Assembly: GCA_049720225.1 (NCBI GenBank)
Contig: JBNASD010000001.1
Span: 228,733 to 292,732, forward strand
DNA: 64,000 nt
Direction of reading: 5' to 3'
Source of the DNA: Microgenomates group bacterium
Lineage (GTDB): Bacteria > Patescibacteriota > Microgenomatia > PFEM01 > JBNASD01
Part shown: piece by piece, positions 24,837 to 47,206 of the stretch
Layout of the letters: the number at the start of each line of letters is the position of its first letter
How positions within the stretch are numbered: the stretch's first letter is position 1
Made by a program: the position numbers and the translations under genes
The notes under the pieces: generated by a model
The model's input: the letters and a program-made list of their open reading frames with translations, nothing else
Databases searched by the model: none
Told to the model about the DNA's origin: nothing

Positions 24837-25579
24837 TATTTAATTATTCCATTGTAAATTTTACTACTTTTTACTAACCATTTTCTCGCTTGATCTCCAA
24901 CTTTTTTAGCACTTTGACCATGATGATGTAAAATTTTTACCGTAGGAAGATAATAAATTTTCAATCCTGCCTTTTTAACTCGCCGGCAATAATCTAAATC
25001 TTCAAAATACATAAAATACCTCTCGTCAAATAAACCTATTTTTTTAATTGTTTTTCTAGAAATCAACATCACTGCTCCGGTTACTGCATCCACTTCTAGC
25101 GGTTTTTCCCCTAAAGGCGTATATTTTTCATATGCTCCTTTTTCTCCTAACCAAAATTCTTTAAACGCTCTCCATAAAGAAGGAAAATGATAAACAGAAG
25201 ATTGAATTGAACCATCAGGATTAATTAATTTCGCTCCAATTACTCCAACATCAGGATGAGATTTTGCAAAGCTTAAAAGATTTTTTAAAGAACCGGGTTT
25301 AACTTTAGTATCAGGATTTAAAAGGAGAATATAATCTCCCCTTGCCTTCTTAATTCCTTGATTTACCGCTTTCGCAAATCCTAAATTTTTTTTATTTTCA
25401 ATAACCCTTAACTCTTTAACGCCTAACTTTTTAACTATCTTAACCGAATTATCAGTTGAAGCATTATCAACAATAATAATTTCGTAACTCAATTCATTTT
25501 TATTTTTTAAAATTGATTCAATACATTCTTTAAGCAGTTTTCCAACATTGAAACTAACAATAATTATTGATAAATCCAT
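24764..25579 (-). CDS. Family 2 glycosyltransferase.
   Basis: LSIIIVSFNVGKLLKECIESI...EIIIVDNASTDNSV, LLLNPDT and a DxD-like FEDLDY. Confidence 0.85.
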   Translation of the reverse strand: MDLSIIIVSFNVGKLLKECIESILKNKNELSYEIIIVDNASTDNSVKIVKKLGVKELRVIENKKNLGFAKAVNQGIKKARGDYILLLNPDTKVKPGSLKNLLSFAKSHPDVGVIGAKLINPDGSIQSSVYHFPSLWRAFKEFWLGEKGAYEKYTPLGEKPLEVDAVTGAVMLISRKTIKKIGLFDERYFMYFEDLDYCRRVKKAGLKIYYLPTVKILHHHGQSAKKVGDQARKWLVKSSKIYNGIIKYWLLTFIIWSGQKWRKILKKIKMK

Positions 25580-26529: not shown

Positions 26530-28524
26530 ATGGCTATCTTTTTATCTTTTTTTATTTGTTTAAGTTCGGTTTTCATTTATCTTTTCTCTTATTTTTGGAA
26601 ATTTAATCATTTTTCTATCATTGGTGGATTTTTGTTTGCTTTTTTAATTTCTCTTTTTTATCTTCATTTTTTTAAAAAAAATAAAGAAAAAGAGCCCTTT
26701 ATAATCAAAATTATTTCTTTAAGTCTCTTTTTAATTTTCCTTATGGCAATAGCATTTATATTATCTCCTTTAATCATTCCTGTTAAAGCAGAGGGTTTTA
26801 CCTTCTTAAGATTTCCGGGTATTGGCGACTATAATAAACATCTTTATGTCACTGGAGCAATTTATAATTCAGGAATTCCCCCTCGACACCCTTATTATCC
26901 TTCAGATTATCTTTCTTATTATTTTGGTTACTATATCATCCCTGCAAGTCTAAGTCTTCTATTCAAAATTTCTCCTCAACTGTTTTTATTTTTCTTTATT
27001 ATTTTAACTTCTTTTCTTTCTTTTTCATTAATTAAAAATGTCATCTATATTTGGGTTAAAAACTCATTTTTTAGAATTCTCAGTCTGAGTTTAATAATAA
27101 TTGGTACAGGATTAGATATTATCCCCACTATTATTTTAGAGAAAATCAAATTTGGAAATACTACTCATATTGAATACTGGGCACATCTATTGGGAAACAA
27201 ATTAATGATTACCAATACTTCTACAGCTATCTTGTGGACTCCTCAACATTTTTTTGTAAGTGCATTGACAGTCTATCTAATTAATTATCTTCTAATTAAT
27301 AAAAAAATCCCTTTATTTATTTTTTCCATTTTTATTTCTTTTATTCTTTTTTCTAGCTCTTTTGTCGCTTTTACTTTCTTTTTCTGGATATTTTTAATTT
27401 TAATTTTTGAAAGAAAAGCCAGAAAGGATATTATTTACAGCGGGCTATTTTCTTTCTTTTTGTCTTTTCCTTTTATTCTCTTTATCTTTAAAAATAGAAC
27501 ATATGATATTTTTAATTTTGAATTTCTTGCAAATAATAAGTTACCACTTCCTAAATTTCTTCAAATTTTAAGTTTTTTTATAATTAATTTTCCAATTGAA
27601 TTCGGAATTGTAGGTATTTTAACTTTATTTCTTGGTCTCAAAAAAATTAAAGTTAGTAATAAAAACTATCAAGTGATATTTTTAGGGGTAATTATTCCTT
27701 TAATAATAATAACTTTTATTGTCTCTTCAAACTGGAATGATTTCGGAATGAGAACAATTCTTCCTATACAGTTAGTTATTCCAATTATTTTGTTTTTACT
27801 TTTAGAAAAAATAAAATCTTTAAAAACTAAAAAATTTGCAATTATTTTGATTTTTATTAATATTATAGTTTCTTCAATTGGAACTCTGTGGGAATTTTAT
27901 TGGCGTTGGAAAGAAAGAAAGCTTTTTACTATTGAAGAATCATTATTATATTTAAAACTCCGTCAAGAGGAAAAATCAAAAATTATTTCTACTTTAGATA
28001 ATTCATTTTGGACATCTTACATTCCTGTAATTTCTTTTCATTCTTTATATTCACCTTCTGTCTATGACTCTCGAGTTTATCTAAATAAAAAATTACAAGA
28101 AGAAATTGATGAATTTAATAATTTTTTAGAAAAAACTTTTATTAACCCTTCATTTGGAAAAAGTCCGAATGAAATAATTAACGAAAAAAATAAACTTTTT
28201 CAAGATTTTCCAAATTACATTAAAAAAATTCCTCCATCTTTATTTATTTTAAGAAAACATAATTCATATGTAATAAGAGGATGGCTGAGTACTTATCATG
28301 CTATTTTTGAACAGATATCAACACCCCAGGAATATAGTTTAGATTTCTCTACTTTTAATATTGAACAAGTTAAAGAAAAAATTAATAAATACCAAATTTT
28401 TATCGAACAAAAACCAGTAAAAGAAATTAACCCACAAAAAAATAATAAAATTTTCCTTAAAAGAGAATTATATTTTTTAATTGGCTGCAAAAAAAAGAAG
28501 AAACTCAAAATATTGAAATTTTAA
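26530..28524 (+). CDS. Large polytopic membrane protein of an unassigned family (family X, member 1). Possibly a GT-C glycosyltransferase or polymerase.
   Basis: There are about 14 TM helices. A conserved extracytoplasmic loop reads FPGIGDYNKHLYVTGAIYNSGIPPRHPYYPSDYLSYYFGYY, related to the DG.WH...FPP.NP...AGE.L.NYH loop of 35843..37819 and 37882..39903. It ends in a C-terminal soluble region of about 200 aa. Confidence 0.45.
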   Translation: MAIFLSFFICLSSVFIYLFSYFWKFNHFSIIGGFLFAFLISLFYLHFFKKNKEKEPFIIKIISLSLFLIFLMAIAFILSPLIIPVKAEGFTFLRFPGIGDYNKHLYVTGAIYNSGIPPRHPYYPSDYLSYYFGYYIIPASLSLLFKISPQLFLFFFIILTSFLSFSLIKNVIYIWVKNSFFRILSLSLIIIGTGLDIIPTIILEKIKFGNTTHIEYWAHLLGNKLMITNTSTAILWTPQHFFVSALTVYLINYLLINKKIPLFIFSIFISFILFSSSFVAFTFFFWIFLILIFERKARKDIIYSGLFSFFLSFPFILFIFKNRTYDIFNFEFLANNKLPLPKFLQILSFFIINFPIEFGIVGILTLFLGLKKIKVSNKNYQVIFLGVIIPLIIITFIVSSNWNDFGMRTILPIQLVIPIILFLLLEKIKSLKTKKFAIILIFINIIVSSIGTLWEFYWRWKERKLFTIEESLLYLKLRQEEKSKIISTLDNSFWTSYIPVISFHSLYSPSVYDSRVYLNKKLQEEIDEFNNFLEKTFINPSFGKSPNEIINEKNKLFQDFPNYIKKIPPSLFILRKHNSYVIRGWLSTYHAIFEQISTPQEYSLDFSTFNIEQVKEKINKYQIFIEQKPVKEINPQKNNKIFLKRELYFLIGCKKKKKLKILKF

Positions 28525-28653
28525 ATCGCCCCCTATTTTCTATTCCCCCAAAGGAAAATTGCGCTGGACAATTTTTTTATCCAGAAGAAGATGGAATATA
28601 TGAAATTACAAAAAATCAAATTTTAACAAGTTTTTACGTATTTCCATTAATAA

Positions 28654-29934
28654 TCAAAATTTAGGTAAATAAAGAAAGCTCCACAAATTTAAAATAATCG
28701 AACCAGTTATTATCGCAATAGTTAAATTTTTTTGAATATTTTTATCTTTAACTAAGTTAAATATCCCCATATTTGCTAAAACCATAATTGGAATTAAAAC
28801 TGGAAATAAATACCTTCCCTGATTTTGAAAATCAAAATATAAAGAGTTCCATAAAGAAAAGGCAATATTTAAAGGAATCAAAATTGTAAATAATAAATAA
28901 AATAAATTATTTCCTTCCCAAATAATAATTTTCTTTTTTTCAGTTAGTTTTTCAATCAATCCTACTAATCCTAGAAATAAAAATCCCCTAAAAATCCATT
29001 GCATTACCGGATCTATCTCTATGGTCATATATCCAAAACGTCCATAAAAACTACTTAGAGTTTCTTCAATCCATTTACTTTTAAATAACACATCATAAAC
29101 TGTCCATCCTGCTTGATTAAAAGTTCGACTAACAAAATTAGCTTTAGTAATTTCTTGATAGGTTTTTATTCCTAAAAAGTCTTTATAAATCAACCAATTT
29201 CTCATAAAAAACCAACCACTTAAAAATAACGGTATTAGTGAAATAATTAATAAGTTTTGAAAATATAATTTTCTAACCTGCCAAAACCTTACTCCTAAAA
29301 ACAACAAGGGAATTAAAAATAACAACCAAAAATTCGTTTTAGAGAAAAAATGAAGAGCTAAACTTAATCCTAAAAGTACCCAGTATTTTTTCTCTTTTAT
29401 TTTTTCTTTGGATAATTGATAAAAAATTAAACTAATCAATATCAAAAATACGCTACTAGCCAGCGAATAAGCTTCTTGGTTAATATAGGCAAAAATATAA
29501 GTTACCTGGGGAATAAAAATTGTAGAAACTAATGTAGAATACACTATAAATGTGTTTTTTAAAAAAAACTTTTTTAAAAATAAATAATAAAGAACAACAA
29601 AAATTATTCCAAAAAAAACTGAGGACATTCTCCCTGCTAAATAATCTCTTTCTATTTTAACTAAACCTTTAAAATTAATAAAAATCGCCGTGATTATATA
29701 ATTTAAAAATGGAGTCTCAATATAAGTTGTCCCTTGACAATCTTTTTCTCTTATTACTGTAATTTTTTCTTTTCCTGCCACTGGTAATCTTTTTTCTTCC
29801 TGAAAAAATTTGGCTGTTTTAAAATGTAAACACTCATCAGGAGCCATATTATAAGGTAAAACCCAAGCCCAATGAGTTACCCACAAAGTCCAAATTATTA
29901 AAATTAAAATAAAAAATTTATTATTCTTCAGCAT
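28654..29934 (-). CDS. Polytopic membrane protein with a PMT/ArnT-like acidic loop motif (GT-C candidate).
   Basis: The first loop LPYNMAPDECLHFKTAKFFQEEKRLPVAG has a DE motif following TM1, as in the GT-C families. There are about 10 TM helices. Confidence 0.4.
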   Translation of the reverse strand: MLKNNKFFILILIIWTLWVTHWAWVLPYNMAPDECLHFKTAKFFQEEKRLPVAGKEKITVIREKDCQGTTYIETPFLNYIITAIFINFKGLVKIERDYLAGRMSSVFFGIIFVVLYYLFLKKFFLKNTFIVYSTLVSTIFIPQVTYIFAYINQEAYSLASSVFLILISLIFYQLSKEKIKEKKYWVLLGLSLALHFFSKTNFWLLFLIPLLFLGVRFWQVRKLYFQNLLIISLIPLFLSGWFFMRNWLIYKDFLGIKTYQEITKANFVSRTFNQAGWTVYDVLFKSKWIEETLSSFYGRFGYMTIEIDPVMQWIFRGFLFLGLVGLIEKLTEKKKIIIWEGNNLFYLLFTILIPLNIAFSLWNSLYFDFQNQGRYLFPVLIPIMVLANMGIFNLVKDKNIQKNLTIAIITGSIILNLWSFLYLPKF

Positions 29935-31186
29935 TTTTTTCTTTTAAAATAACCCAACTATAAAACAACGCAGTCCCTGCAAAAACACTGCGAACCAAAC
30001 TTTTTAATTGAAAAACATTAAACCAACGACTTAAAAAATCAGCCAATGAAGAGGCATTTTTTAAATGAGGAAAAATTGGTACAAATAATCCATATGATAA
30101 AGATGCCTCAAAAGTTAAAGTAATAAATAACCAACAACTAAATAAAGTTAAAACTAACCAAATATGTTTAAAATTATTTTCCACCAATTCTAAAATTAAA
30201 AAGGGGGTAATCCATAAAAACCATTGAGGATGATAGTGAGTAACGGAAAATATTAAAAGTAAAATAGATATATAATAACCAATAAGCCTCCCACTATTCT
30301 TGTAATAAAAGGCATAAAAATAAAGAAAAATTAAAATAAAAATAAATGGATAAATTGATTCTGCACCAGAAAGCGCCCAATTCATAAAAAGCATCTTTTG
30401 GCTCTTGGGAGAAAATAGAACCATCGACCTGAAGCCTTTAGAAAAGAGGTAGGGAAAAATAGAAAGAATAAACGGAAAAAACCCAATTAAAATAAGTTTA
30501 ATCCTCTTTTTTATCCCCTCTTCCAGCTTAAATGCAGTAGGAAAAATTAATAAAAGTGGAAATAATTTATAACTCCCACCTACACCTAAAGAAAACATAG
30601 CCCAATTTATTTTTTTATTTTTTATTAAAAAAAGAGATAAAACTACAAAAAATACAGGCAATATATCTATTTGTCCTATCATAAAAGTAGTATATAAAGC
30701 GATAGGATTAAACATCCAAAACAAAAAAGTTAGTTTTTTTTGACTCTCTTTTTCTAAAAGAGAACTTAGCAAAAACGCAAGAAGTATATCAAGAAAAATA
30801 TACGGAAATTTAAAGAAAAATATATGAGAATAAATTTTGGGATAGAAGTATGCTTGATTAATATTTTCCATCAGCCAGGGAATAAAATTAGAGTCAGTAA
30901 AAGGTTTTACTAAAAACCTAAAAATTCCCAAGGTAAAATAAGTTAAAGGTGGATAAATAAATATATCTCCTACTCCGAAATTACGCACTAAAGGATGAGA
31001 CTGAGGTAAATTAATTAAATAATCATAAATATTAAATTTACCTTCGTACGCAAAAAAATAAGCGGTAAACGAATGACCCCATAAATCAGAATGAGCGGTA
31101 ATTGGAGAGAGTATTAACCTTAAAAAAAGTCCAAAAATTAGCCAAGGAAAATACCAGCAATTAGTTATTTTCTTTAATAATCTCAT
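29921..31186 (-). CDS. Polytopic membrane protein (GT-C/DUF2029-like candidate).
   Basis: There are about 11 TM helices. The N-terminal loop is ITAHSDLWGHSFTAYFFAYEGKFNIYDY. No soluble catalytic domain is present. Confidence 0.35.
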   Translation of the reverse strand: MRLLKKITNCWYFPWLIFGLFLRLILSPITAHSDLWGHSFTAYFFAYEGKFNIYDYLINLPQSHPLVRNFGVGDIFIYPPLTYFTLGIFRFLVKPFTDSNFIPWLMENINQAYFYPKIYSHIFFFKFPYIFLDILLAFLLSSLLEKESQKKLTFLFWMFNPIALYTTFMIGQIDILPVFFVVLSLFLIKNKKINWAMFSLGVGGSYKLFPLLLIFPTAFKLEEGIKKRIKLILIGFFPFILSIFPYLFSKGFRSMVLFSPKSQKMLFMNWALSGAESIYPFIFILIFLYFYAFYYKNSGRLIGYYISILLLIFSVTHYHPQWFLWITPFLILELVENNFKHIWLVLTLFSCWLFITLTFEASLSYGLFVPIFPHLKNASSLADFLSRWFNVFQLKSLVRSVFAGTALFYSWVILKEKNAEE

Positions 31187-32240
31187 AAAATTTTTCCCAA
31201 AATTTTGTTTCTGAGTAATTTTTACTTGATTTTACTACTTTTTTAGATAATTTTTGAAGTTTTTGAGGGTTATTAATTAAATCAAATGTAATGGTTATCA
31301 AATCTTGTTCTTTTTCCCATAAAAATCCATTTTCTCCTTCTTTAATTATAACTGGTGCTTCTCCTTTTTTAATTACTATAGGAACTACCCCTGAAGCCAT
31401 TGCTTCAATTGTGGTAATACCAAAATGTTCAACTTTTTCTGGTTCTTTGTTTTCATCAATTCCAAATCCAGAAGCGGACCAAAAAATTTTTGCTCGAGAA
31501 TATAATTTTTTAAGCTCTTCGAAAGAAGGACTTTTAATTAACTTAATAGGAAAACCAATTGTTTCTTTTTCCAAAAACTTAAAATATTCCTCTCCTCCTA
31601 CTTCTACTCCTCCAGCGAGAATCAATTTCCAATTTTTCAATCCCTGTTTTACCATTTCTTTAAAAATCTTTATAAGAATATCTTGCCTTTTTGCCTGTAA
31701 AAGTTGAGAAAATCTTCCTACTGATAAAATAATATTTTCTTTTTTGCCAAGGTTAAATTGATCTACAGCTACTGGAGGATAAATCACTAAAGAATTAATT
31801 CCATATTCTCTATCAATAAATTTTTTAGTGAAAAATGAATTACAAACAACATAATCTATATTTTTTAATTTTAGTTTATTTAACCAATTTTTTCCCCCTA
31901 CATTATGAAAAGGCACTTGAAAATGTAAAATATTTTTTTTAGAAAAAAGCCAGGGAATACTACCATCACTTAACCAAAAAAATAAATCATACTTTCTAGT
32001 TTTTTTAACACGAGAAAGAAAAGAATTAACTAAAGGAGAAAAATTTTCTTTATCAAAATTAAAATCAAATCTTTCTTTAATCTTTAAAGCAATTTCGGGA
32101 TTGTTCCAAAAAATTTTTACTACCCACCCATTTTTTTTAAAAAAATTAGCTAAAGTAAGAGTATATCTTTCCCCTCCTCCTAAAGTATCTAAATAAGGAT
32201 CATAAAATCCAACTATTTTTTTATTTTTTGTTTTTCCCAT
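31161..32240 (-). CDS. Family 4 glycosyltransferase (GT-B). The start is probably the internal MGKTKNKK at 32240 rather than the track start at 32315.
   Basis: The C-terminal domain has EHFGITTIEAMASGVVPIVIKKGEAPVII (the GT4 E-x7-E region). The N-terminus GFYDPYLDTLGGGERYTLTLANFFKKNG is typical of GT4 enzymes. Confidence 0.8.
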   Translation of the reverse strand: MGKTKNKKIVGFYDPYLDTLGGGERYTLTLANFFKKNGWVVKIFWNNPEIALKIKERFDFNFDKENFSPLVNSFLSRVKKTRKYDLFFWLSDGSIPWLFSKKNILHFQVPFHNVGGKNWLNKLKLKNIDYVVCNSFFTKKFIDREYGINSLVIYPPVAVDQFNLGKKENIILSVGRFSQLLQAKRQDILIKIFKEMVKQGLKNWKLILAGGVEVGGEEYFKFLEKETIGFPIKLIKSPSFEELKKLYSRAKIFWSASGFGIDENKEPEKVEHFGITTIEAMASGVVPIVIKKGEAPVIIKEGENGFLWEKEQDLITITFDLINNPQKLQKLSKKVVKSSKNYSETKFWEKFYEIIKENN

Positions 32241-32986
32241 AATTTTGCATAAGTAATAAATCGAGAAAACATTTGATAAATTATTTCTATCCATCCTACT
32301 ACTCCATCTCGCCATCCTTGTTTTTTAATTCCTCTTTCCCAAAATTCAGTTAACATAATTCTTAAAAATCGCCACCAGGTCATTGGTGGATGGCCACTTT
32401 TATAAAGTAATTCTGCTTCAATTTCCGACCATTGATTTGTTTTTTCTACCATCGAAGACAAGTCGCGATGGGTTATATGAAGAATTGGATTTTTTAAATA
32501 TCCTAATTTTCCTTCAAAAACTGGCCTTTCATGAAGTTTTCCTTCCCATTTTCTTAAGTTTTCTCGTTTAAACAATCTTATCTGATAATCTGGCCACCAT
32601 CCACCAAATCTTACCGGACGACCTAACAAAATATTTTGCCGAGGAATGGCATAAGCAGAGAATTCTTTTGAATTTTTACTAATTATTTCCGAAATTTCCT
32701 TTTTAAGTTCCGGAGTCACTCTTTCATCGGTATCTAAATAAAAAATCCATTCTCCTTTACTTTCGCCAATCCCCTGATTATGCCATTCGGCAAAATCCAT
32801 TTTCTTTTCTTTTTGAAAACGAATTTTTACCTTTTTAAATTCTTTTACTATTTCTAAAGTTCCATCGGTTGAACCTCCATCTAAATAAATAATTTCATCA
32901 GCCCATTTTACTGATAAAAGGCAATCTTTAATTAAATCTTTAGCATTTTTTCCGATAATTATTACCGAAATTTTTGGCTTTTTCAT
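32213..32986 (-). CDS. Family 2 glycosyltransferase.
   Basis: ISVIIIGKNAKDLIKDCLLSVKWADEIIYLDGGSTDGT...YLDTDERVT...GGWWPDYQIRLF. It is a paralogue of 17374..18177 and 34968..35837. Confidence 0.8.
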   Translation of the reverse strand: MKKPKISVIIIGKNAKDLIKDCLLSVKWADEIIYLDGGSTDGTLEIVKEFKKVKIRFQKEKKMDFAEWHNQGIGESKGEWIFYLDTDERVTPELKKEISEIISKNSKEFSAYAIPRQNILLGRPVRFGGWWPDYQIRLFKRENLRKWEGKLHERPVFEGKLGYLKNPILHITHRDLSSMVEKTNQWSEIEAELLYKSGHPPMTWWRFLRIMLTEFWERGIKKQGWRDGVVGWIEIIYQMFSRFITYAKLWEKQKIKK

Positions 32987-32987
32987 C

Positions 32988-33683
32988 TTAATAAAGAAAA
33001 TCTATTAAAAAAATTGCCACTGTCAACCAAAATCCTCCTAAAAGAAAACCACCAATTACATCAGTTAAAAAATGAACTCCTAAATAAAGCCGACTAAAGG
33101 CAATTAAAAGTATTAATAAACCAATCATTATAGAAAATCCTACATTCCATTTTTTAGAAAATTTACCAAAACGAAAAATTAAATAAGTAATTAATCCATA
33201 AAAGTAAAAAGAAATGGCGCTGTGACCAGAAGGAAAAGAATAACAATTAAAAATCCCCCCAAATAAAAAATCAGGACATTCCCCTGGACGAATTCGCGAA
33301 AAAAAAGATTTAAAAAAACTTAATAAAATAGCGCTTCCCAATAAAGAAATTAAAACAGTAATTGCCGCTCTTTTCCTTTTGGTCTTAATTAAAAAAATTA
33401 ATAAAAATAAAGATAAACTCATAATAAAAAATTCTGATCCTAAAAGAGTAATTTTTTCTAGAAAATATCTTATTGTCGGTGAAGAATTCTTCTGAAAAAA
33501 TAAAGATAAATTTACATCTAAATCAATTAAGAATGAATTAAATATTTTTTTCCATAAAAGAAAAAAACTGAAAATAGAAAATAAACAAACCATTAAAAAA
33601 AATAAAAACTTACGCTTTGGGTAATTTTTAATTCTTTTAATTAAATCTTCTTTTTGAAATTCTAGCCACTGTTTTAGGGTCAT
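32988..33683 (-). CDS. PAP2-family phosphatase; candidate undecaprenyl-diphosphate phosphatase.
   Basis: All three PAP2 motifs are present: KSFFSRIRPGE (KX6RP), FPSGHSA (PSGH) and SRLYLGVHFLTDVIGG (SRX5HX3D). The protein has six TM helices. Confidence 0.75.
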   Translation of the reverse strand: MTLKQWLEFQKEDLIKRIKNYPKRKFLFFLMVCLFSIFSFFLLWKKIFNSFLIDLDVNLSLFFQKNSSPTIRYFLEKITLLGSEFFIMSLSLFLLIFLIKTKRKRAAITVLISLLGSAILLSFFKSFFSRIRPGECPDFLFGGIFNCYSFPSGHSAISFYFYGLITYLIFRFGKFSKKWNVGFSIMIGLLILLIAFSRLYLGVHFLTDVIGGFLLGGFWLTVAIFLIDFLY

Positions 33684-34048
33684 TTTATTTTTTCAATAAA
33701 TGCAGGAAGAAAAATAAAAAAACCCAAAATTGCCAATCCAAAGGAAAGAACTAGCATCATCCCCGCAGAGATATCTTTTGCAATTTTTATTTTAGGATCG
33801 TACTTTTCACTGATAACATCTAAGGTTTTTTCAAAAGCGGTATTAGTCATTTCGATGGTTAACCCTAGAAAAATAGCTAAAATTAAAAACAAAAGTTTTT
33901 CCCCAGAAATTTTTAACCACCAAGAAAAAAATAAAACTAAAAGAGAGATAATTAAATGAACTTTAAAGTTTCTTTGTGTTTTAAAAGCATACACAATCCC
34001 GTTTAAAGCATTTTTAAATGATTGCCACCAATTTTGATTTTTAGTCAT
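33680..34048 (-). CDS. dgkA: Prokaryotic diacylglycerol-kinase family protein (DgkA-like); possibly undecaprenol kinase.
   Basis: It is 122 aa with three TM helices. IEMTNTAFEKTLDVISEKYDPKIKIAKDISAGMMLV matches the DAGK_prokar signature (E..NTAIE...D.......AKD.aAgAVL). Confidence 0.7.
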   Translation of the reverse strand: MTKNQNWWQSFKNALNGIVYAFKTQRNFKVHLIISLLVLFFSWWLKISGEKLLFLILAIFLGLTIEMTNTAFEKTLDVISEKYDPKIKIAKDISAGMMLVLSFGLAILGFFIFLPAFIEKIK

Positions 34049-34058
34049 ATTTTTTATT

Positions 34059-34967
34059 TTAATCTATCCAACTGCCTTTGCCAAATTTTTGAAAATAAAA
34101 GTCTCTAATAGCAATTTTTTGCCACTTTCGTCCTTTTAAAAAAATTTTAAAGCTTTCTTTAATTAAAGCTATTTTAGTACGCAAAGAAGCATATTTTATC
34201 CCAAAAAGCATCCGATTTCGGGTAATAAAATAGTCATGAAGTGACCCGCCAACCTCACTTGATCCTGCATTATAATGCCAAACTTTTGCCTGAGGAACAT
34301 AAATAATCTTAAATCCTGCTTTTTTTGCTCTAACACAAAAATCAACATCTTCCAAATACAAAAAATAACGAGGATCAAATAAACCCACTTTTTCAAAAAC
34401 TTCTCTTTTAACCAACATTGCACAACCAGAAACAAAATCTGTTTCTTCTACTTTATCATATTGTCCTCTATCAACTTCATCAACTCCTCGATGAGAACAA
34501 TAAATATTTTTCCAATCAATTAATCCTCCCGCATACCAAAAAACTTTTCCTCTTTCTTCTTTTTTATATCTATTTTTGTGGTATTCATAGCAGGGTGCAA
34601 AGTAAATCTTTGGACCAAAAATGCCACTTTTATTAATCAAATCACTTTGTTTAATTAAATAAATTAAAAAATTTTTATCAACAGTAGTATCGTTATTTAA
34701 AATTAAAATATAATCGGCACCATTTTTTAAAGCATACCTTATTCCCACATTATTCCCTTCTGCAAAACCTAAATTTTGGGAATTTTTAATTATTTTTAAA
34801 TCTTTAAATTTTTTCCTCAGATAATCAACCGGTTCGGGAGAACAATTATCAACTAAAATTTTAATAATTTGATAGTTTTTGATATTTATTTCGTTAAGAA
34901 ACTTAAAACATTGGTCTGTTAAATTTTTACCTTTATAATGAAGAACAACAATTCCAACTTTTTTCAT
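34059..34967 (-). CDS. Family 2 glycosyltransferase.
   Basis: VGIVVLHYKGKNLTDQCFKFLNEI...ILVDNCSPEP, ILNNDTT and LEDVDFC. Confidence 0.8.
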   Translation of the reverse strand: MKKVGIVVLHYKGKNLTDQCFKFLNEINIKNYQIIKILVDNCSPEPVDYLRKKFKDLKIIKNSQNLGFAEGNNVGIRYALKNGADYILILNNDTTVDKNFLIYLIKQSDLINKSGIFGPKIYFAPCYEYHKNRYKKEERGKVFWYAGGLIDWKNIYCSHRGVDEVDRGQYDKVEETDFVSGCAMLVKREVFEKVGLFDPRYFLYLEDVDFCVRAKKAGFKIIYVPQAKVWHYNAGSSEVGGSLHDYFITRNRMLFGIKYASLRTKIALIKESFKIFLKGRKWQKIAIRDFYFQKFGKGSWID

Positions 34968-35837
34968 TTAGATTTTACTTTTTATCTTTAACCAAAATTT
35001 TTTAGGAAATTTTTCTACACAAGATCGCCACCAAAAATAATTATTAATTACTTTTTCAAAAGATAACGAATAATCTTTTATTTCAACCTCTCTAAATTTT
35101 TCTTTTTCCCAAATTTTTAAATAAACTACTAACTCTGAAAATGCTTGTAGTAAACAAAGAGCTAATCCATGAATTCCATCTTTCCATCCTTTTTCAACAA
35201 AAAATCGACGAAAAAATTCCTCGGCTGGTTTGATTATTAAATCTTGATATTCAAATTTATAATTCTTTTCTCTCAAAATTTCCGCTGTCAATGTAGTATA
35301 TCGATCCAATTTCTGAAGATATTGAGAAATTGAATGGTAGTTATAATGAACAAGAGGAACATTTATTTCTCCAACCTTTCCTTCTAAAATCAATTGCTCA
35401 TGAACTTTTCCTTGATATTTTCCTTTTTTAGTTTTAAACAAATGAAGTTGCCAATCTGGATACCAACCAGTATGTTTTATCCATTTACCAAAAATAATAT
35501 TCTTCCGAGGAAAACGAAAGCCGTCATATTTATCTTCTTTAATTACTTTTTCTACTTCTTTTCTAAACTCAGGAGTAACTCGCTCGTCCGCATCTATCAT
35601 TAAAACCCATTTTGTTTTCACCTTGTTTAAAGCCCAATTTCTTTGAGAAGAAAAGTTATCAAGCCTCCTCTGATAAACTCGCGCACTAAACTTCTTAGCA
35701 ATTTTAACCGTTTCATCGGTAGAAAAATCATCAACTACAATAATTTCTTTAACCCAAGACAAATTATCAAGACATTCACCAAGATTTTTCTCTTCGTTTT
35801 TGGTAAGAATTACCGCCGTTAAATCTGATTTCTGCAT
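34968..35837 (-). CDS. Family 2 glycosyltransferase.
   Basis: TAVILTKNEEKNLGECLDNLSWVKEIIVVDDFSTDETV, MIDADERVT and GWYPDWQLHLF. Confidence 0.8.
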   Translation of the reverse strand: MQKSDLTAVILTKNEEKNLGECLDNLSWVKEIIVVDDFSTDETVKIAKKFSARVYQRRLDNFSSQRNWALNKVKTKWVLMIDADERVTPEFRKEVEKVIKEDKYDGFRFPRKNIIFGKWIKHTGWYPDWQLHLFKTKKGKYQGKVHEQLILEGKVGEINVPLVHYNYHSISQYLQKLDRYTTLTAEILREKNYKFEYQDLIIKPAEEFFRRFFVEKGWKDGIHGLALCLLQAFSELVVYLKIWEKEKFREVEIKDYSLSFEKVINNYFWWRSCVEKFPKKFWLKIKSKI

Positions 35838-35842
35838 TAACT

Positions 35843-37819
35843 TTATTTTATCCTATTGACTTTAAAAATTCTAACTTTTCCATTATTAAAAATTAAAGGC
35901 AAATCTAAATCTTTTTCGGAGTTAAATTTTTGGTCATCTACTAAATAAATATAATTAATTCTTGCCTCCTTCAAAAATTTTTCCGCTTTTTCTTTTTCTT
36001 TAGTTTGAAAAAATTCTTCAACTTTTTTTAATCTTTCTTTCCAAGGATAACCTAAAATATTTGCCTGGTTTTGGTCTTCTAAATAGACTCTTCTTTCACT
36101 AAAAAATGAGACATAGGAAGAATTATAATAAGTCAAAGGAATTGGTGGTCTTTCAAATTGTTTTCTTTTATTTTCATAATAAGGATAAGTGAGAATAATT
36201 TCCTCTTTAGAAGAATAGCGTTTTAAAAAATTTAATCCCTCCAACTCTTTTTTTTCTAAAATCGTAGTTGGAGTAGGAGCATTATACCACCAAAAGGTTT
36301 TTACTGCCGAAGGTAAAGAACAAACAATTAATAAAATAATAATTAGAATTTTAATTTCATTTTTAGGGATTTTTTTCCATATTTTTCCTATTGCCCATCC
36401 CGCTAAAAATCCAAAAAAGAAGATAAAATAATAAAGAAACTGAATAGTATTCCAAGCTACTCCTTTTTGGATAAAAAATAATGGAGGAAAAAAAGAAATC
36501 GGTAAAGCAATCAAAAAAAGGATATCCAAAAAATTTTTTCTTTTAAATAAATCTTTAAAAGAAAGAAATCCGCAAATTCTACTACCTAAATTACCTACTA
36601 AAAAAATTAAAAAAGCAATAAGTTCTATTATTAAAACTTTATATTTTTCTCCAATTAAAGAATAAAATTGACGTCTCATTTCTAAATTCACCCAATTTAC
36701 TCGATCTGGCGCTTCAATCATGGTTCTAATAAACCACCACGGTTTCCAAATTAAAAATTCTTCGCCAGTAATATTACTTTTCCAGTAAAATAAACCAGAA
36801 ATTAAAAAAGCCAAAAGCACAATTTTTATTAAATCGAAATCTTTTTTATTTATCATCCGCCAACCTCCAATTAAACTTAGAGTTAAAAAAATAACTATGG
36901 CTCCATAAATTTTAACGATAACCAATAATCCCAAAATTAAAGCAATTAAAGGAATTAAAATTTTATTTTTTTCTTTTATGAATAAATTTAGTAAAATTAA
37001 ACCTCCACTAATCAAAATTAATGATAAAGCAAAAGGTGGATTTAAAAAGGCAGAGGGCGTCTGAGCTCCCCAAAAAGCAGTCTCCCAATTGTTACTTCCC
37101 AAACCAAAGATATTTAAAACCCAACCAAAACTACTAGTAAAAGAAAAGAAGAAAACACTAAAAATAGAGGCAACTTTATTTTTAGTCCACTGCAAAGTTA
37201 AAAAATAAACCAAACTGTTTAAAATCAAGCTAAATATTAAAGGAAAAAAACGAAAGTAAATATCTAAAATTGGAATTTTAAAAAAATAATTAATCTGAGC
37301 AATTAGTAAATCAGTTAAAAAATGATAATTCTTTAATAATTCTCCAGCAAAACCAGGATTTTGAGGGGGAAAATTATTGACTAACTCCCTCGTTAATGCC
37401 ATATGCCACACCCCATCATATCCATTTACTCCCCAAAACAAGATCCCTTTATCTGTCATCCATCCGCTTTTAAACATTAAAGAAGACTGGAAAAGTGCTC
37501 CTCCTAAAACTATCAAAAAAGGAAAGAAGTTTATTTTTAACTTTTTAATTTTTAGGTAGTATTCTCGATAAATTTGTTTTTTAAGAAACAAAAATAAAAA
37601 TATGAGGTTAATTGGTAAAATTAAAATCCTTAATTCCAAAAATCCCAACCAAAAGCTCAAAAAAAGAAAAAAACTTAAACCAACAACGACACTTAAAAAA
37701 ATTTTTTGTAGGGGGAAAATTTTGACTTTAACCAAAAGAACAGCTCCAGAAATAAAAAGAAAAAAAAGCAAAAAAAGCAAGAATAAAATAAAATTTCCCA
37801 ATAAGGATAAAATTGTCAT
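35843..37819 (-). CDS. Large polytopic membrane protein, family X member 2 (unassigned; GT-C/polymerase-like).
   Basis: The conserved loop is KSGWMTDKGILFWGVNGYDGVWHMALTRELVNNFPPQNPGFAGELLKNYHFLTDLL. There are about 14 TM helices and a C-terminal soluble domain. Collinear similarity to 37882..39903 runs throughout. Confidence 0.45.
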   Translation of the reverse strand: MTILSLLGNFILFLLFLLFFLFISGAVLLVKVKIFPLQKIFLSVVVGLSFFLFLSFWLGFLELRILILPINLIFLFLFLKKQIYREYYLKIKKLKINFFPFLIVLGGALFQSSLMFKSGWMTDKGILFWGVNGYDGVWHMALTRELVNNFPPQNPGFAGELLKNYHFLTDLLIAQINYFFKIPILDIYFRFFPLIFSLILNSLVYFLTLQWTKNKVASIFSVFFFSFTSSFGWVLNIFGLGSNNWETAFWGAQTPSAFLNPPFALSLILISGGLILLNLFIKEKNKILIPLIALILGLLVIVKIYGAIVIFLTLSLIGGWRMINKKDFDLIKIVLLAFLISGLFYWKSNITGEEFLIWKPWWFIRTMIEAPDRVNWVNLEMRRQFYSLIGEKYKVLIIELIAFLIFLVGNLGSRICGFLSFKDLFKRKNFLDILFLIALPISFFPPLFFIQKGVAWNTIQFLYYFIFFFGFLAGWAIGKIWKKIPKNEIKILIIILLIVCSLPSAVKTFWWYNAPTPTTILEKKELEGLNFLKRYSSKEEIILTYPYYENKRKQFERPPIPLTYYNSSYVSFFSERRVYLEDQNQANILGYPWKERLKKVEEFFQTKEKEKAEKFLKEARINYIYLVDDQKFNSEKDLDLPLIFNNGKVRIFKVNRIK

Positions 37820-37861
37820 TATAAATTAATTTTATCATTTAAAATTGATTTTAGAAAACAG

Positions 37862-37881
37862 ATAAAAGTATAATTTAATAA
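37862..37881 (+). promoter_or_regulatory. -10-like TATAAT hexamer about 8 nt upstream of the ATG of 37882..39903, with no Shine-Dalgarno sequence. Suggests a leaderless or very short-leader transcript.
   Basis: ...gataaaagtataatttaataa ATG. The same arrangement occurs at 26517..26522 (tataat, ATG at 26530) and near 14166..14173 (tatataat, ATG at 14179). In an AT-rich genome such hexamers can occur by chance. Confidence 0.3.
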
Positions 37882-39903
37882 ATGAATTCGGTTTTTTTTA
37901 ATTTGATAAAAGTTATTTTTTTTCTACCTTTTTTTCTTTTTCTTTCAACATTAGTTTTCTATATTCCTGGCTTTTTGTTAGTTAAATACACCTTTAACAA
38001 ATTAAGATCAGATGAAATAATTATTCTTTCTTATGCAATTGGAATAATTATTTTTCTTCTAATTAGCATTCTTTTTTTTATTATTAAAATTAATCCTCTT
38101 TTTCTTTTTATTATCTTAACTTTATTTTCATTCATAAAGTTTAAAAAAAGATTATTTATTCCTTTCTCTTTTTTCTTTAAGGAAAAATTTCTTTTATTTC
38201 TTCTTCTTTTAGGCACTCTTACGGAAGGTTTTATTAATTTTCCCAGCGGTTTTCCATATCAAAACGGCCATCTTTATTGGAGCGCCCAAGGTCATGATGG
38301 TCTCTGGCATATAGCAGTAATTGAAGCAATCAAAAAAAATTTCCCTCCCAATAATCCTTTGTATGCCGGCGAGAAACTTTTTAATTATCACTATTTTAGC
38401 GATATTGTAATGGCAGGTTTTAGCAACATTTTTCCTTTTTTTAATGTTTTAGACCTTTATTTTCGCTATTTTTCTTTTTTAATTTCTTTTTTAATTGGTC
38501 TTTCTGCTTATTCTTTTTTAACTACTTGGACTAAAAATAAAAAAATTGGTTTGTGGGGGGTATTTTTTAGTTATTTTGTTGGTAGTTTTGGATATATAGT
38601 ATTAGCTATCCAAAGACGTGGATTTTTTGGTGGAGAAACAATTTTTTGGGCTGCTCAGGGAAATACTATTATTGGCAATCCTCCCCATGCTTTTTGTTAT
38701 GTTCTAGTTCCTGCTTTCTTTTTAGCCTTTTTTTATTATCTTAAGCAGCCAACTATTCAAAGTTTTATTCCTCTTTTTTTACTAGGAAGCTTTTTAGCTG
38801 GTTTTAAAGTTTCTGCGGGAGTAGTTTTAGGAGGGGCGCTGGCAGGGGTCTTCTTTTTTAATTTGTTATTTAAAAAAGAAAAAAAACTTTTTCCAATAAT
38901 TATCATTCCCATTTTAAATTTCTTTATCTTCAAAATTTTAACTAGAAAGGGAGAATCATTTTTGATTTTTGAACCATGGTGGTTTATTAGAACAATGGTG
39001 GTGGCTCCTGATCGATTAAACTGGGTTGATTTAGAATTAAAAAGACAGTTTTATCTTGCTAAAGGAGGCTTCCGTTCTTGGCTTCGAATTTTTCAGTTTG
39101 AGGCAACTGCTTTTTTAATTTTTCTTTTAGGAAATTTAGGAACAAGATTTGTAGGATTTTGGGAAATTTTTAAAAACTTTATAAACAAAAAAGTGTTTAA
39201 AGATCCACTTATAATGAATCTTTTTGTTTCTTTAATTATTAGTTTTTTAATTCCTCTTTTTTTTGTCCAAAGGGGAGTAGCTTATAATCTTATTCAATTT
39301 ATGCAATATTTCTTGCTTATTTTTGGCTTTTTTGCGGCAATTGCTACTTATAACATTATTGAAAACATTAAATCTCGCTTTAAAAAAATAATTTTTGTTA
39401 TTCTCTTTGTTTTTCTTTCAATCCCTACGGTAATAGGCAATTTGTATGAATTTTATGGAAAAAATGCTCTTGCTATTGTTAGTAATCAAGAAATTGAAGC
39501 TTTAAATTTTTTAAAAAAAATTTCAAAACCTACCGATATTGTTTTAACCAAACCCTTTGATCGGTGGGCCCATTTAGCTTACCCCCATCAACCATGGCCA
39601 ATTTCTGTATGGGAATCGACTGCCCATGTAAGTGCTTATACATCTTTACAAACCTATCTTACTGACGAAGGACAAGTTAAAATCTTAGGAATCGATCCAG
39701 AAGAAAGATTGGCAAAATCTGGTGCTTTTTTTGACTCTAAAACTCCTCTTTCTCAAAAAAAATCATTTTTGGATTCAGAAAAAATTAGCTTTATTTATCT
39801 TCGTAAGGAAGAAAATGATAGAATTAATTTCGAAATATTTCCGAAATTGAATTTAGAAAAGATATTTGAAAATCAGGAAGTAGTAATTTATAAGAAAAAA
39901 TAA
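37882..39903 (+). CDS. Large polytopic membrane protein, family X member 3, divergently transcribed from member 2.
   Basis: Its loop PSGFPYQNGHLYWSAQGHDGLWHIAVIEAIKKNFPPNNPLYAGEKLFNYHYFSDIV matches member 2. The shared downstream blocks are WWFIRTM..APDR.NWV.LE..RQFY and FIQ.GVA.N.IQF.QYF. Confidence 0.45.
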   Translation: MNSVFFNLIKVIFFLPFFLFLSTLVFYIPGFLLVKYTFNKLRSDEIIILSYAIGIIIFLLISILFFIIKINPLFLFIILTLFSFIKFKKRLFIPFSFFFKEKFLLFLLLLGTLTEGFINFPSGFPYQNGHLYWSAQGHDGLWHIAVIEAIKKNFPPNNPLYAGEKLFNYHYFSDIVMAGFSNIFPFFNVLDLYFRYFSFLISFLIGLSAYSFLTTWTKNKKIGLWGVFFSYFVGSFGYIVLAIQRRGFFGGETIFWAAQGNTIIGNPPHAFCYVLVPAFFLAFFYYLKQPTIQSFIPLFLLGSFLAGFKVSAGVVLGGALAGVFFFNLLFKKEKKLFPIIIIPILNFFIFKILTRKGESFLIFEPWWFIRTMVVAPDRLNWVDLELKRQFYLAKGGFRSWLRIFQFEATAFLIFLLGNLGTRFVGFWEIFKNFINKKVFKDPLIMNLFVSLIISFLIPLFFVQRGVAYNLIQFMQYFLLIFGFFAAIATYNIIENIKSRFKKIIFVILFVFLSIPTVIGNLYEFYGKNALAIVSNQEIEALNFLKKISKPTDIVLTKPFDRWAHLAYPHQPWPISVWESTAHVSAYTSLQTYLTDEGQVKILGIDPEERLAKSGAFFDSKTPLSQKKSFLDSEKISFIYLRKEENDRINFEIFPKLNLEKIFENQEVVIYKKK

Positions 39904-47186: not shown

Positions 47187-47206
47187 AAATAAATTCAATT
47201 ATGCTA
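47181..47206. promoter_or_regulatory. Perfect 8-bp inverted repeat TAGCATAA-N10-TTATGCTA in the divergent control region between the GT-C gene (minus) and the PIG-V-like gene (plus). Candidate operator.
   Basis: tagcataaataaattcaattatgcta reads directly. It lies 15 nt upstream of the 47221 ATG and overlaps the possible 5' end of the minus-strand gene. Confidence 0.35.

Follow-up and report, generated by a model that had tools for sequence, protein, structure and literature searches.

Two adjacent genes of an uncultured Microgenomates (CPR) bacterium encode paralogous integral-membrane proteins, named B and C here, which are predicted to be glycosyltransferases of the GT-C fold. Their probable role is the glycosylation of the cell surface. 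At a little better than even odds (about 0.55), both are catalytically competent enzymes that move a lipid-linked sugar or glycan onto a surface acceptor as a conserved module. The novelty lies in the sequence family, which is large and nameless in databases; the enzyme class is well known, and the kind of system is not new. The pair and a third protein, A, lie in a window of 64,000 nucleotides, the whole stretch of DNA analysed. The three open reading frames and the B-C spacer have the positions and lengths that the original prediction gave them (Table 1).

Table 1. Features of the B/C region, with positions in the window
Feature	Positions	Strand	Remarks
Protein A	26530..28524	+	664 aa; remote homolog, different, rarer family
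Genes downstream of B	31161..35837	-	same strand as B
GT4	31161..32315	-	Pfam
GT2	32213..32986	-	Pfam
PAP2 phosphatase	32988..33683	-	Pfam
DAGK-like kinase	33680..34048	-	Pfam
GT2	34059..34967	-	Pfam
GT2	34968..35837	-	Pfam
Protein B	35843..37819	-	658 aa; subfamily B; paralog of C
B, equivalent of FVQRGVAYNLIQFMQY block	36428..36475	-	
B, equivalent of PWWFIRTMVVAPDRLNWVDLELKRQFY block	36662..36742	-	
B, equivalent of K309	within 36905..36919	-	K303
B, second extracytoplasmic loop equivalent	37031..37090	-	
B, first large extracytoplasmic loop	37310..37423	-	GYDGVWH...FPPQNP..AGE.LKNYHFLTD: D135, W138, H139, N164, Y165, H166, D170
B-C divergent intergenic region	37820..37881	.	62 bp, AT-rich
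Protein C	37882..39903	+	673 aa; subfamily C1; predicted GT-C-fold membrane glycosyltransferase, 14 predicted TM helices
C, first large extracytoplasmic loop	38290..38403	+	GHDGLWH...FPPNNP..AGE.LFNYHYFSD: D139, W142, H143, N168, Y169, H170, D174
C, second extracytoplasmic loop	38629..38688	+	GGETIFWAAQ...GNPPH: E252, F255, W256, Q259, N266
C, one-residue third extracytoplasmic loop	38800..38814	+	invariant K309, 100% of 241
C, large flexible extracytoplasmic loop block	38974..39054	+	PWWFIRTMVVAPDRLNWVDLELKRQFY; absent from A
C, short loop and helix block	39262..39309	+	FVQRGVAYNLIQFMQY; Q463, N469, Q472, Y476
C, OST-type C-terminal extracytoplasmic domain (predicted)	39460..39900	+	residues 527-673
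Wzx-type (MOP) flippase	39907..41394	-	convergent with C; Polysacc_synt_3, E 1e-49
PTPS_related/YfhO-like polytopic membrane protein	41391..43073	-	weak PF10131 match, E 0.0017

Searches of Pfam-A and NCBIfam at E<=1 gave no match for A, B or C, barring a chance 11-bit rad2 match in A. The PDB sequences gave none, and none of 30 B/C family members matched Pfam. The proteins remain unassigned, as first described, and their distinctness from PMT/ArnT, Wzy and Wzx is borne out at the sequence level. Some members carry the automatic UniProt name 'Glycosyltransferase RgtA/B/C/D-like domain-containing protein'. The family DUF6541 (PF20176), which the original prediction had named for checking and which like the B/C family consists of polytopic proteins of about 650 aa, gave one partial match in each of two scans, both to the N-terminal 60 profile positions (the long paralog P0243, E 0.0037; one of 30 A1 members, E 0.021). 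Membership was rejected, because the one reported score, 16 bits, falls short of the gathering cut-off of 29, and the match spans under 10% of the model.

The 241 aligned homologs, all of which came from Patescibacteria (CPR) MAGs and metagenome contigs in this analysis, form four subfamilies. In C numbering, D139, W142, P155, N168, Y169, H170, E252, F255, W256, N266, K309, P365, W367, G417, Q463 and Y476 are conserved in 100% of them, and H143, D174 (240 of 241 each), N418 and N469 in 99.6%. Judged from this alignment, the conservation is far beyond chance, and the DG.WH and NYH residues, at 99.6-100%, held up. The proteins B and C have in common the motifs GxDGxWH...FPPxNP..AGE.L.NYH, PWWFIRTM..APDR.NWV.LE..RQFY and F.Q.GVA.N.IQF, and B keeps all the family-invariant residues.

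Structurally, the AlphaFold model of C agrees with the original picture of some 14 TM helices and a C-terminal soluble domain. It contains 14 long membrane helices, of which three are extra N-terminal helices and 11 form a GT-C core, followed by an extracytoplasmic alpha/beta domain (residues 527-673) of the type seen at the oligosaccharyltransferase (OST) C-terminus. The closest full-length structural matches are also of the OST type. Lysine and arginine make up 11 of 36 residues in the short cytoplasmic loops and 5 of 39 in the outer ones. In the model, the strictly conserved polar residues are extracytoplasmic (D139/H143, N168-Y169-H170-D174, E252, K309, the PWWF..R..E..RRQ loop and Q463/N469), save for the N418/R422 block within TM11. 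The first-loop motif stands at the start of a helix (135-152) beyond TM4. Residues 330-380 are the lowest-confidence part of the model (pLDDT 53-75), as expected of a mobile loop.

Extracytoplasmic loops of GT-C enzymes carry an acid in loop 1, E/Q/N in loop 2 and K/R in loop 3 (PMC6801728), and the conserved layout of B and C follows this pattern. In loop 1, the acid is one Asp (H/Y-D-G) with no classical DxD. The invariant acidic, His and Lys residues, kept in both proteins, suggest that both are catalytically competent. By topology and analogy, D139 is a putative catalytic or metal-binding acid, and K309 with the conserved Arg residues are candidate lipid-phosphate holders.

The surroundings form a glycosylation island, as had been recognised. 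Its GT2 enzymes, some of them possibly Und-P-sugar synthases, include small ones with full-length GT2 domains, and it also contains GT4, Wzx-type flippase and GT2-GtrA fusion genes. The genes that follow B are presumed to be a cytoplasmic set for glycan building and lipid-carrier recycling, the latter presumably served by the PAP2 phosphatase and the DAGK-like kinase. A phosphoglycosyltransferase, LCP or Wzy found no Pfam match among the 49 window ORFs of at least 150 aa. In the mechanism that we propose, the adjacent GT2 and GT4 enzymes, at the inner membrane face, would load a polyprenyl phosphate carrier with a sugar or a short glycan, the neighbouring flippase would carry the product across, and B and C would pass the sugar or glycan on from the lipid to an acceptor at the cell surface, be it a wall polymer or a protein. 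The window also encodes six PMT_2 enzymes and further polytopic proteins that could equally use flipped substrates, so synteny cannot assign the donor uniquely. By analogy with WpsH/WpsI and WpsJ, B and C most likely perform two different transfers, such as polymerisation and anchoring; alternatively, they may form a heteromer, as in Pmt1-Pmt2 or EmbA-EmbB.

A less probable reading places B and C among the PMT/ArnT/GacL/YfhO-type enzymes, which add single sugars as decoration. In that case, the two would take a monosaccharide from a polyprenyl monophosphate charged by an island GT2 and place one residue on a wall polymer or protein, with neither en-bloc transfer nor polymerisation. The 11-TM core and the invariant loop-3 Lys resemble Dol-P/Und-P monosaccharide users; PMT/ALG/PIG-type GT-C enzymes typically carry a conserved K/R in the third luminal loop, where STT3 and DPY19 have N/Q (PMC6801728). 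Und-P-GlcNAc is among the possible cargoes of Wzx-type flippases, GacK being an example (PMC10821137, PMC8035078). The absent WWDYG motif, the small GT2 enzymes, the GT2-GtrA fusion and the remote profile similarity to PMT_2 point the same way. However, the several cytoplasmic GT2/GT4 enzymes of the conserved operon exceed the need of one sugar, the six PMT_2 enzymes already fit that role, and the structural matches and C-terminal domain are of the OST type.

It is unlikely that the family is a CPR-specific oligosaccharyltransferase, one that would move a Wzx-flipped oligosaccharide en bloc from Und-PP onto surface proteins (N- or O-linked), whose acceptor peptide the C-terminal domain would bind. 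The linked Wzx and GT2/GT4 genes, a PAP2 phosphatase that would recycle the released Und-PP and a nearby gene for a 1,637-aa surface protein are consistent with such an enzyme. Against it stand the absence of an STT3 Pfam match even at E<=1, the loop-3 Lys, the segment at the WWDYG position, which differs among subfamilies (NLxEFYG, LLwQFYs, Ti.Wfna), the six TM helices, in place of eight, that separate loop 1 from the large loop, and a window without an initiating phosphoglycosyltransferase. A non-enzymatic role as transporters, scaffolds or anchors of similar polytopic helical architecture is highly improbable, as the MFS/MOP transporter matches in Foldseek are weak and far down the list (probability <=0.09, TM-score ~0.1) and the invariant extracytoplasmic D/H/E/K are typical of GT-C active sites.

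The proposed surface transferases B and C are an old, conserved two-gene module in which a B-type or long paralog lies next to a C-type gene. Where other lineages have long paralogs of 1,030-1,150 aa, B is by alignment their shorter equivalent, matching the C-terminal part of a 1,148-aa protein (locus L004) with 34% identity over 635 aa (E 5e-87). The head-to-head arrangement recurs in seven other loci (L006-L012), with counterpart spacers of 39-68 bp in L006-L008. In most other lineages (22 other species loci), a long B-like paralog immediately precedes the C-type gene in the same orientation. Of 39 species-representative loci, 26 have the partner as the immediate neighbour and 30 have it within 3 kb, counts that are biased by retrieval of the loci with C-type peptide patterns. 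Eight of the 39 have no partner within 3 kb, and the pair is therefore not obligatory. In the eight wide-flank loci (L001-L008), the gene order is Wzx, long or B, C-type, (PMT_2), GT2, GT2, GT4, and a GT2-GT2-(GT2)-GT4 run follows the pair as it does here, so that linkage to a Wzx flippase and to GT2/GT4 genes is without exception. The flippase directly adjoins the pair in seven (L001-L005, L007, L008), and a PTPS_related/YfhO-like gene is near the flippase in five (L001-L004, L007) and farther away in L005. Start and stop codons overlap within the module in L004 and L005. In the B-C spacer, a sigma-70-like site (TTGATT-18-TATAAT) ends 8 nt ahead of the C ATG, and the count of such sites there is not above that of shuffled sequence.

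The original description of the pair as an inverted duplication, taken as a local event in this genome within a three-member family, is refuted as a recent event and retains next to no probability: B and C are paralogous and diverge over a short spacer, but they share only 37% protein identity over 554 aa (E 2e-101) and 66% at the DNA level, limited to 394 nt, they belong to separate subfamilies (mean identity 32%; 41 clusters in subfamily B) with dozens of orthologs each, their arrangement recurs elsewhere, and A is outside the B/C family.

The protein A, at ~20% identity to B and C, is a genuine remote homolog as judged by profile comparison. The proposed three-member family holds at the superfamily level, where hhalign of enriched profiles gave 97% probability (E 9e-11, 445 columns) and an intermediate group links the two families, matching each at 99.8-100%. 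It fails at the family level, where the 241-sequence B/C HMM gave A a whole-sequence E of 7.4; BLASTP of A gave E 0.012 against C and ~1 against B. All the motifs first ascribed to the three proteins occur in B and C, while A has the loop skeleton only (D100...H104...PP.HP...YY; E215.W217). It shares G.L.EFY, and lacks K309 and both 'shared downstream blocks', the PWWF...RRQ block among them. The word index gave only 7 homologs of A, and an exhaustive profile search gave 631 representative clusters (E<=0.001), of which 43 reached E<=1e-30. Its AF2 model was unusable (pLDDT 44.5).

Among known systems, the PMT_2/ArnT-like enzymes (PF13231; GT39/GT83) include GacL, GtlB and CsdD, which belong to Gram-positive multi-component transmembrane glycosylation systems. 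They resemble B and C in the 11-TM core, in the conserved loop-3 K/R, in proximity to flippases and GT2 genes (candidate Und-P-sugar synthases) and in remote profile homology, at 82.6% to the six PMT_2 paralogs of the window. In contrast, none of 30 B/C family members match PF13231 at E<=1, and B and C have extra N-terminal helices, an OST-type C-terminal domain and the loop-1 signature DGxWH...NYH..D in place of the PMT_2 D-E motif, which a low-confidence hhalign places ~12 residues upstream of D139. With STT3/AglB/PglB (GT66, PF02516), the likeness lies in a large mobile extracytoplasmic loop ahead of the last four TM helices and in the linked Wzx-type flippase. B and C differ in having no detectable sequence similarity, no WWDYG, a single Asp instead of DxD, Lys where STT3 has N/Q, 14 TM helices (three extra at the N-terminus, but two fewer on the way from loop 1 to the large loop) and a conserved paralog pair. 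Precedent for a Wzx-type flippase working with GT-C enzymes in multi-component transmembrane glycosylation is found in GacI/J/K/L and WpsA/B/G/H/I/J, and several GT-C enzymes of these systems also have no Pfam domain (PMC10821137, PMC8035078). The lactococcal PSP pathway (WpsA/B, WpsG, WpsH/WpsI, WpsJ) follows the same logic as that proposed for the present island: cytoplasmic glycosyltransferases make a glycan on polyprenyl phosphate, from a cluster without a classical phosphoglycosyltransferase, the Wzx-type WpsG flips it, and more than one GT-C-fold enzyme then polymerises and anchors it outside, in a model that is itself partly bioinformatic (PMC10821137). The likeness is one of system logic, and the two GT-C enzymes here differ in that they are paralogs of each other.

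Proteins B and C, the two polytopic membrane proteins encoded head-to-head in the window, are very probably glycosyltransferases of the GT-C fold, and we put the probability of this reading at about 90%. B and C, as well as the third membrane protein, A, lie exactly where the original prediction had placed them, in DNA of about 28% G+C. C, B and A are identical to the NCBI "hypothetical proteins" ACPLKP_01410, ACPLKP_01405 and ACPLKP_01360 of a MAG named "Microgenomates group bacterium", where they lie on a contig of 466 kb. The AlphaFold model of C (pLDDT 87, pTM 0.90), when compared with the PDB by Foldseek, matched at probability 1.0 only GT-C enzymes, namely DPY19, AglB, PglB, STT3A/B, AftA, ArnT and AftD. 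The polytopic domain of the model superposes on solved GT-C enzymes at the level of the fold, and a C-terminal extracytoplasmic alpha/beta domain of the oligosaccharyltransferase (OST) type is present.

Features of the window, with their positions in nucleotides
Feature	Position	Strand	Size	Remark
Protein A	26530..28524	+	664 aa	
Protein B	35843..37819	-	658 aa	
Spacer between B and C	37820..37881		62 bp	
Protein C	37882..39903	+	673 aa	
Wzx flippase	39907..41394			convergent with C
PMT_2	18193..19872			first of four in tandem
PMT_2	19869..21509			second of four
PMT_2	21506..23134			third of four
PMT_2	23109..24836			fourth of four
PMT_2	44182..45699			further copy
PMT_2	45696..47198			further copy
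PAP2 phosphatase	32988..33683			in operon downstream of B
DAGK-like kinase (prokaryotic)	33680..34048			4-nt overlap with PAP2 gene
Small GT2	48300..49055			precedes GT2-GtrA fusion
Small GT2	49052..49777			precedes GT2-GtrA fusion
GT2-GtrA/DPMS TM fusion	49779..50966		395 aa	
ORF without Pfam match	11219..12343			
ORF without Pfam match	15846..17414			
ORF without Pfam match	28654..29934			polytopic
ORF without Pfam match	43061..44185			
ORF without Pfam match	47221..48303			
Radical-SAM protein	2292..3821			
Radical-SAM protein	14179..15849			
Surface protein	58959..63872		1,637 aa	just past the island

Read together with the positive-inside rule (11 K/R in 36 residues of the short inner loops, 5 in 39 of the short outer ones), the model of C suggests 14 TM helices with both termini outside. 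A long outer loop 1 follows TM4 in the model, then come six TM helices, a 43-residue outer loop of low confidence (mobile) that carries PWWF..R..E..RRQ, and four TM helices before the C-terminal domain. This layout would amount to the 11-TM GT-C core of PMT/ALG-type enzymes with three N-terminal helices added, and together with the OST-type C-terminal domain it would represent a distinct GT-C architecture.

The family to which B and C belong is large, with at least 526 homolog clusters for C and at least 369 for B. Among the 120 best listed homologs of each, a Pfam domain was found only in one long form, as a precomputed "DUF3863 (weak)" label that was not reproduced. In an alignment of 241 sequences of at least 600 aa, in which the long ones were represented by their C-terminal 690 aa only, four subfamilies were distinguished, with between-subfamily identities of 32-39%: C1 (n=123, including C), C2 (n=66), B (n=41, including B) and a long subfamily of 1,030-1,150 aa (n=11). 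Seventeen positions, in the numbering of C, are conserved in 241/241 sequences: D139, W142, P155, N168, Y169, H170, G237, E252, F255, W256, N266, K309, P365, W367, G417, Q463 and Y476. H143, D174, N418 and N469 are conserved in 99.6%. The loop motifs that had been read from the window alone therefore hold up for B and C across all four subfamilies, and the window coordinates of the motif blocks were confirmed by translation. The family HMM recognised no further member among the ORFs of the window, and no cultivated organism is known to carry a gene of this family. The contigs of many GTDB representatives that carry it are titled "uncultured Gammaproteobacteria bacterium" (L010, L012-L016 and others of the fetched loci), with "Bathyarchaeia" or "Clostridia" in a few cases. 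In gene content these contigs match Patescibacteria loci, and their titles appear to be placeholders or misassignments from bulk MAG submission and no sign of a wider taxonomic range.

The conserved residues recall the general pattern of GT-C enzymes. That pattern consists of an acidic motif of the DxD, DD or ExD type in loop 1, R, D, E, N or Q in loop 2, and K or R in loop 3 (PMC6801728); B and C follow it with E/Q/N in loop 2 and a basic loop 3, and have one acid as the putative counterpart of the motif in loop 1. Loop 1 contains the single invariant Asp D139 within H/Y-D-G-x-W-H, with no second acid adjacent to it in the 241 sequences, and ends with D174; loop 2 contains E252, Q259 and N266, and K309 is the single residue of loop 3. 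As STT3 and DPY19 have N or Q in loop 3 (PMC6801728), the lysine makes the family resemble monophosphate-donor enzymes in this loop.

Membership in the known families was examined with profile searches. No Pfam-A model matched A, B or C above its gathering score, no Pfam-A or NCBIfam model matched B or C at E<=1, and the lone NCBIfam match in the scans of the three proteins was a chance 11-bit hit to rad2. A Pfam scan of 30 family members gave only a few sub-threshold matches (E>=0.02), and the family profile found no PDB sequence at E<=10. To the PMT_2 proteins, hhalign connects B/C by a remote link only (82.6%, E 1e-5, 374 columns, against the six PMT_2 paralogs of the window). Membership in PMT_2 is rejected nonetheless, as 0/30 members match the PMT_2/ArnT-like models (PF13231, PF02366) at E<=1; the six genuine PMT_2 proteins match Pfam PMT_2 at E 1e-8 to 1e-14. 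The transfer of the PMT_2 "DE" motif to D139 by hhalign was dropped, because the alignment is unreliable in that segment. UniProt automatically names some members [quoted passage not shown], a name which we presume to derive from the InterPro entry for PMT_2-like domains.

Membership in STT3 is likewise rejected. The STT3 model (PF02516) matches neither B, C nor the 30 members at E<=1, WWDYG is absent, and the topology differs: STT3, AglB and PglB have 13 TM helices, with loop 1 after TM1 and EL5 between TM9 and TM10, whereas the model of C has 14, with loop 1 after TM4. The segment after the last TM helix, in the WWDYG position, reads PTVIGNLvEFYG in C1, PTQlGLLwQFYs in C2 and LPStlkTi.Wfna in B, and is variable in the long subfamily. 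The paralogs may share their chemistry and differ in acceptor, and a subfamily-specific segment at this position is what would then be expected. The Pfam check that the original prediction had called for was run on A, B and C, and the models for YfhO (PF09586), PTPS_related (PF10131), Wzy_C/O-antigen ligase and Wzx were silent, as were those for EpsG, DUF2723 and AftD/Emb. Membership of B/C in DUF6541, YfhO, Wzy or Wzx is rejected for lack of any above-threshold Pfam match, the matches of two relatives to DUF6541 (PF20176) being partial and sub-threshold (E 0.0037, with 16 bits where the cut-off is 29, in one; E 0.021 in the other). A literature search on GT-C enzymes or oligosaccharyltransferases in CPR/Patescibacteria, or on the B/C family, returned no relevant paper.

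By their sequences, B and C are unmistakably paralogs (37% identity over 554 aa, E 2e-101). The spacer has the length first reported, and a promoter scan of it found one consensus-like site, a count not above shuffled expectation. The accompanying claim that the pair is an inverted duplication fares differently. At the DNA level the two genes are just 66% identical, over 394 nt, and their arrangement recurs in relatives, so a recent local inverted duplication is rejected; the pair is an old conserved two-paralog module, inverted in the lineage of the window organism. The head-to-head order, B(-)/C(+) with a 39-68-bp spacer, is kept in relatives of this organism. Among 39 species-representative loci classified by subfamily HMMs, a C1 or C2 gene is directly preceded by a long gene in 22, and B and C1 are head-to-head in 4; a long gene lies within 3 kb in 4, C1 and C2 are in tandem in 1, and a C-type gene stands alone in 8.

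The surroundings of the pair are conserved as well. Wzx adjoins it in 7/8 loci with wide flanks, and a GT2/GT4 run follows it in 8/8. A core of Wzx, paralog pair and GT2/GT4 recurs in MAGs labelled Daviesbacteria, Shapirobacteria, Woesebacteria, Berkelbacteria and Microgenomates. Daviesbacteria- and Berkelbacteria-labelled MAGs have PTPS_related, Wzx, a gene for about 1,140 aa, a C-type gene, PMT_2, GT2, GT2 and GT4, all read in one direction; in the loci L004 and L005, stop and start codons overlap. The long forms seem to have their short counterpart in B: the C-terminal 635 aa of a 1,148-aa protein share 34% identity with B (E 5e-87). In addition, the long paralogs carry at the N-terminus a secreted domain of some 500 aa (L004:4553..6100, L001:6537..8100, L005:4591..6150 and the upstream parts in L014-L046), with the invariant motifs V.DQY.TD.YQ.WGQ, QWA.RDP.N.YG, GLEN.Y and R.QY. 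This domain found no significant match in Pfam or the PDB, singly or as a 14-sequence profile, and has no separate gene in the window; it is possibly acceptor-binding or glycan-processing.

Protein A stands further away. It had been grouped with B and C in one three-member family, which is true at the superfamily level only: the B/C family HMM scores whole A at E 7.4, the BLASTP E-value of A is 0.012 with C and about 1 with B, and A has neither the PWWF...RRQ loop nor K309. A first profile-profile comparison gave a probability of 54.7%, and hhalign with enriched alignments (37 A-type, 241 B/C-type) raised it to 97.0% (E 9e-11, 445 columns). An intermediate group of 79 proteins is matched by the A and B/C families at 99.8% and 100%, and the B/C HMM also matches 9/148 proteins newly retrieved with the A profile (P0248-P0395). 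In the alignment, H104 of A corresponds to H143, and E215 and W217 to E252 and W256; the invariant D100 lies four residues upstream of H104, with the spacing of D139 to H143, and A also retains PP.HP, N229 and, past its last TM helix, a G.L.EFY segment. Sequence comparison thus makes A a genuine remote homolog. Its own family is much rarer than that of B and C, with 7 homologs by word-index search and, in an exhaustive profile search of 1.84 billion representatives, 43 clusters at E<=1e-30. At E<=0.001 the same search reached 631 representative clusters of membrane proteins of 500-1,050 aa (P0287-P0395 among those retrieved). None of 10 sampled has a significant Pfam match (one sub-threshold DUF6798, E 0.005), and the 10 intermediate members looked up were metagenomic proteins without a name, plus one from a "Phycisphaerae" MAG (3.5-kb contig). 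These results suggest that the A and B/C families are bridged by a large superfamily that is still unannotated. The AlphaFold model of A, built on a 7-sequence alignment, was unusable (pLDDT 44.5).

A scan of all 49 ORFs of at least 150 aa showed that the window from 384 to about 55.7 kb is almost wholly a glycosylation island of about 55 kb, broken up by a few genes of unrelated function (TPR, methyltransferases). Encoded in it are six PMT_2 GT-C proteins, one that is GT87-like and one that is PTPS_related/YfhO-like, two Wzx flippases, 13 GT2 (one a GT2-GtrA fusion), two GT4, a PAP2 phosphatase, a DAGK-like kinase and sugar-nucleotide enzymes; models for phosphoglycosyltransferase, LCP and Wzy matched none of the 49 ORFs. 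GT2, GT2, kinase, PAP2, GT2 and GT4 follow downstream of B on its strand, and the PAP2 phosphatase and DAGK-like kinase look like a dedicated polyprenyl-(pyro)phosphate recycling pair. The GT2-GtrA fusion and the two small GT2 genes are candidate Und-P-sugar synthase/flippase modules feeding GT-C enzymes.

Several further observations concern the island. Six PMT_2 genes are unusually many extracytoplasmic glycosyltransferases for a small-genome CPR bacterium. Five ORFs of 360-522 aa have no Pfam match, and the one that was read is clearly polytopic; they are candidate Wzy-like polymerases or more unrecognised GT-C enzymes. The two radical-SAM proteins, one with a B12-binding domain and the other with Radical_SAM_C, may modify sugars, e.g., by methylation or epimerisation. 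The large surface protein, with its SdrD_B, SpaA-type prealbumin-fold, PKD and DUF11 domains, could plausibly be an adhesin or a target of glycosylation. Two pairs of mechanically called ORFs overlap, 31161..32315 with 32213..32986 (103 nt) and 23109..24836 with 24764..25579 (73 nt); the true starts are probably internal, e.g., that of the GT4 at the ATG of "MGKTKNKK" and that of the PMT_2, with its TTG start, further downstream.

The co-occurrence of GT-A/GT2, flippase and GT-C genes that marks multi-component transmembrane glycosylation (PMC8035078) is found here. Taking the GT-C fold, the invariant extracytoplasmic D/H/E/K in both paralogs and the conserved linkage to Wzx and cytoplasmic GT2/GT4 as the basis, we lean slightly towards a system in which a lipid-linked sugar or glycan is built inside, flipped by Wzx, and transferred to a surface acceptor by B and C as putative transferases. 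The putative Und-P-sugar synthases (GT2), GT2-GtrA fusion, Wzx, PAP2 and DAGK-like kinase would provide the context for a polyprenyl-phosphate-linked donor. It is improbable, in our estimate, that a B or long protein and a C-type protein work as a heteromer of the OST kind and pass an oligosaccharide flipped by Wzx en bloc to surface proteins, as a third, CPR-specific bacterial OST lineage beside PglB and the PglL-type. Acceptor recognition would then be encoded by the subfamily-specific segment replacing WWDYG, and the family would sit within a much larger superfamily of extracytoplasmic glycosyltransferases (631 clusters, the 10 sampled without Pfam).

CPR/Patescibacteria are ultrasmall bacteria. 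To our knowledge, all members cultivated to date are episymbionts dependent on contact with a host surface, and almost nothing is known of CPR envelope glycans. Here, a GT-C pair without a database family lies at the conserved core of a glycosylation stretch. The family definition offers a handle for annotating more than 500 "hypothetical proteins" and nominates D139, H143, H170, D174, E252 and K309 for mutagenesis. An oligosaccharyltransferase-like activity would be of interest to glycoengineers; ordinary sugar-adding enzymes would make this a useful but routine family definition.

What is new is the family, whose architecture is distinct and whose paralog pair is conserved; the enzyme class itself is known. 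GT-C enzymes without a Pfam domain have been described in Gram-positives (GltB, GtlB, YkoS and CsdB; PMC8035078), and new GT-C families are still founded upon shown activity, e.g., GT136 (PMC11127046). The system of Wzx-flipped, lipid-linked donors towards which we lean has its nearest worked-out parallel, as far as the logic goes, in the lactococcal PSP pathway. There, the glycan is begun on undecaprenyl monophosphate by a GT2, elongated by cytoplasmic GTs and exported by a Wzx-type flippase; in the proposed model, the membrane proteins WpsH and WpsI polymerise and the GT-C enzyme WpsJ anchors (PMC10821137). A model of this type would explain why a phosphoglycosyltransferase is missing, why Wzx is linked, why loop 3 has a lysine and why there are two GT-C enzymes. 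Compared with the known systems, the family has the GT-C fold, an architecture nearest to the OSTs and a loop chemistry nearer to PMT/ALG-type enzymes, but in sequence it is none of these.
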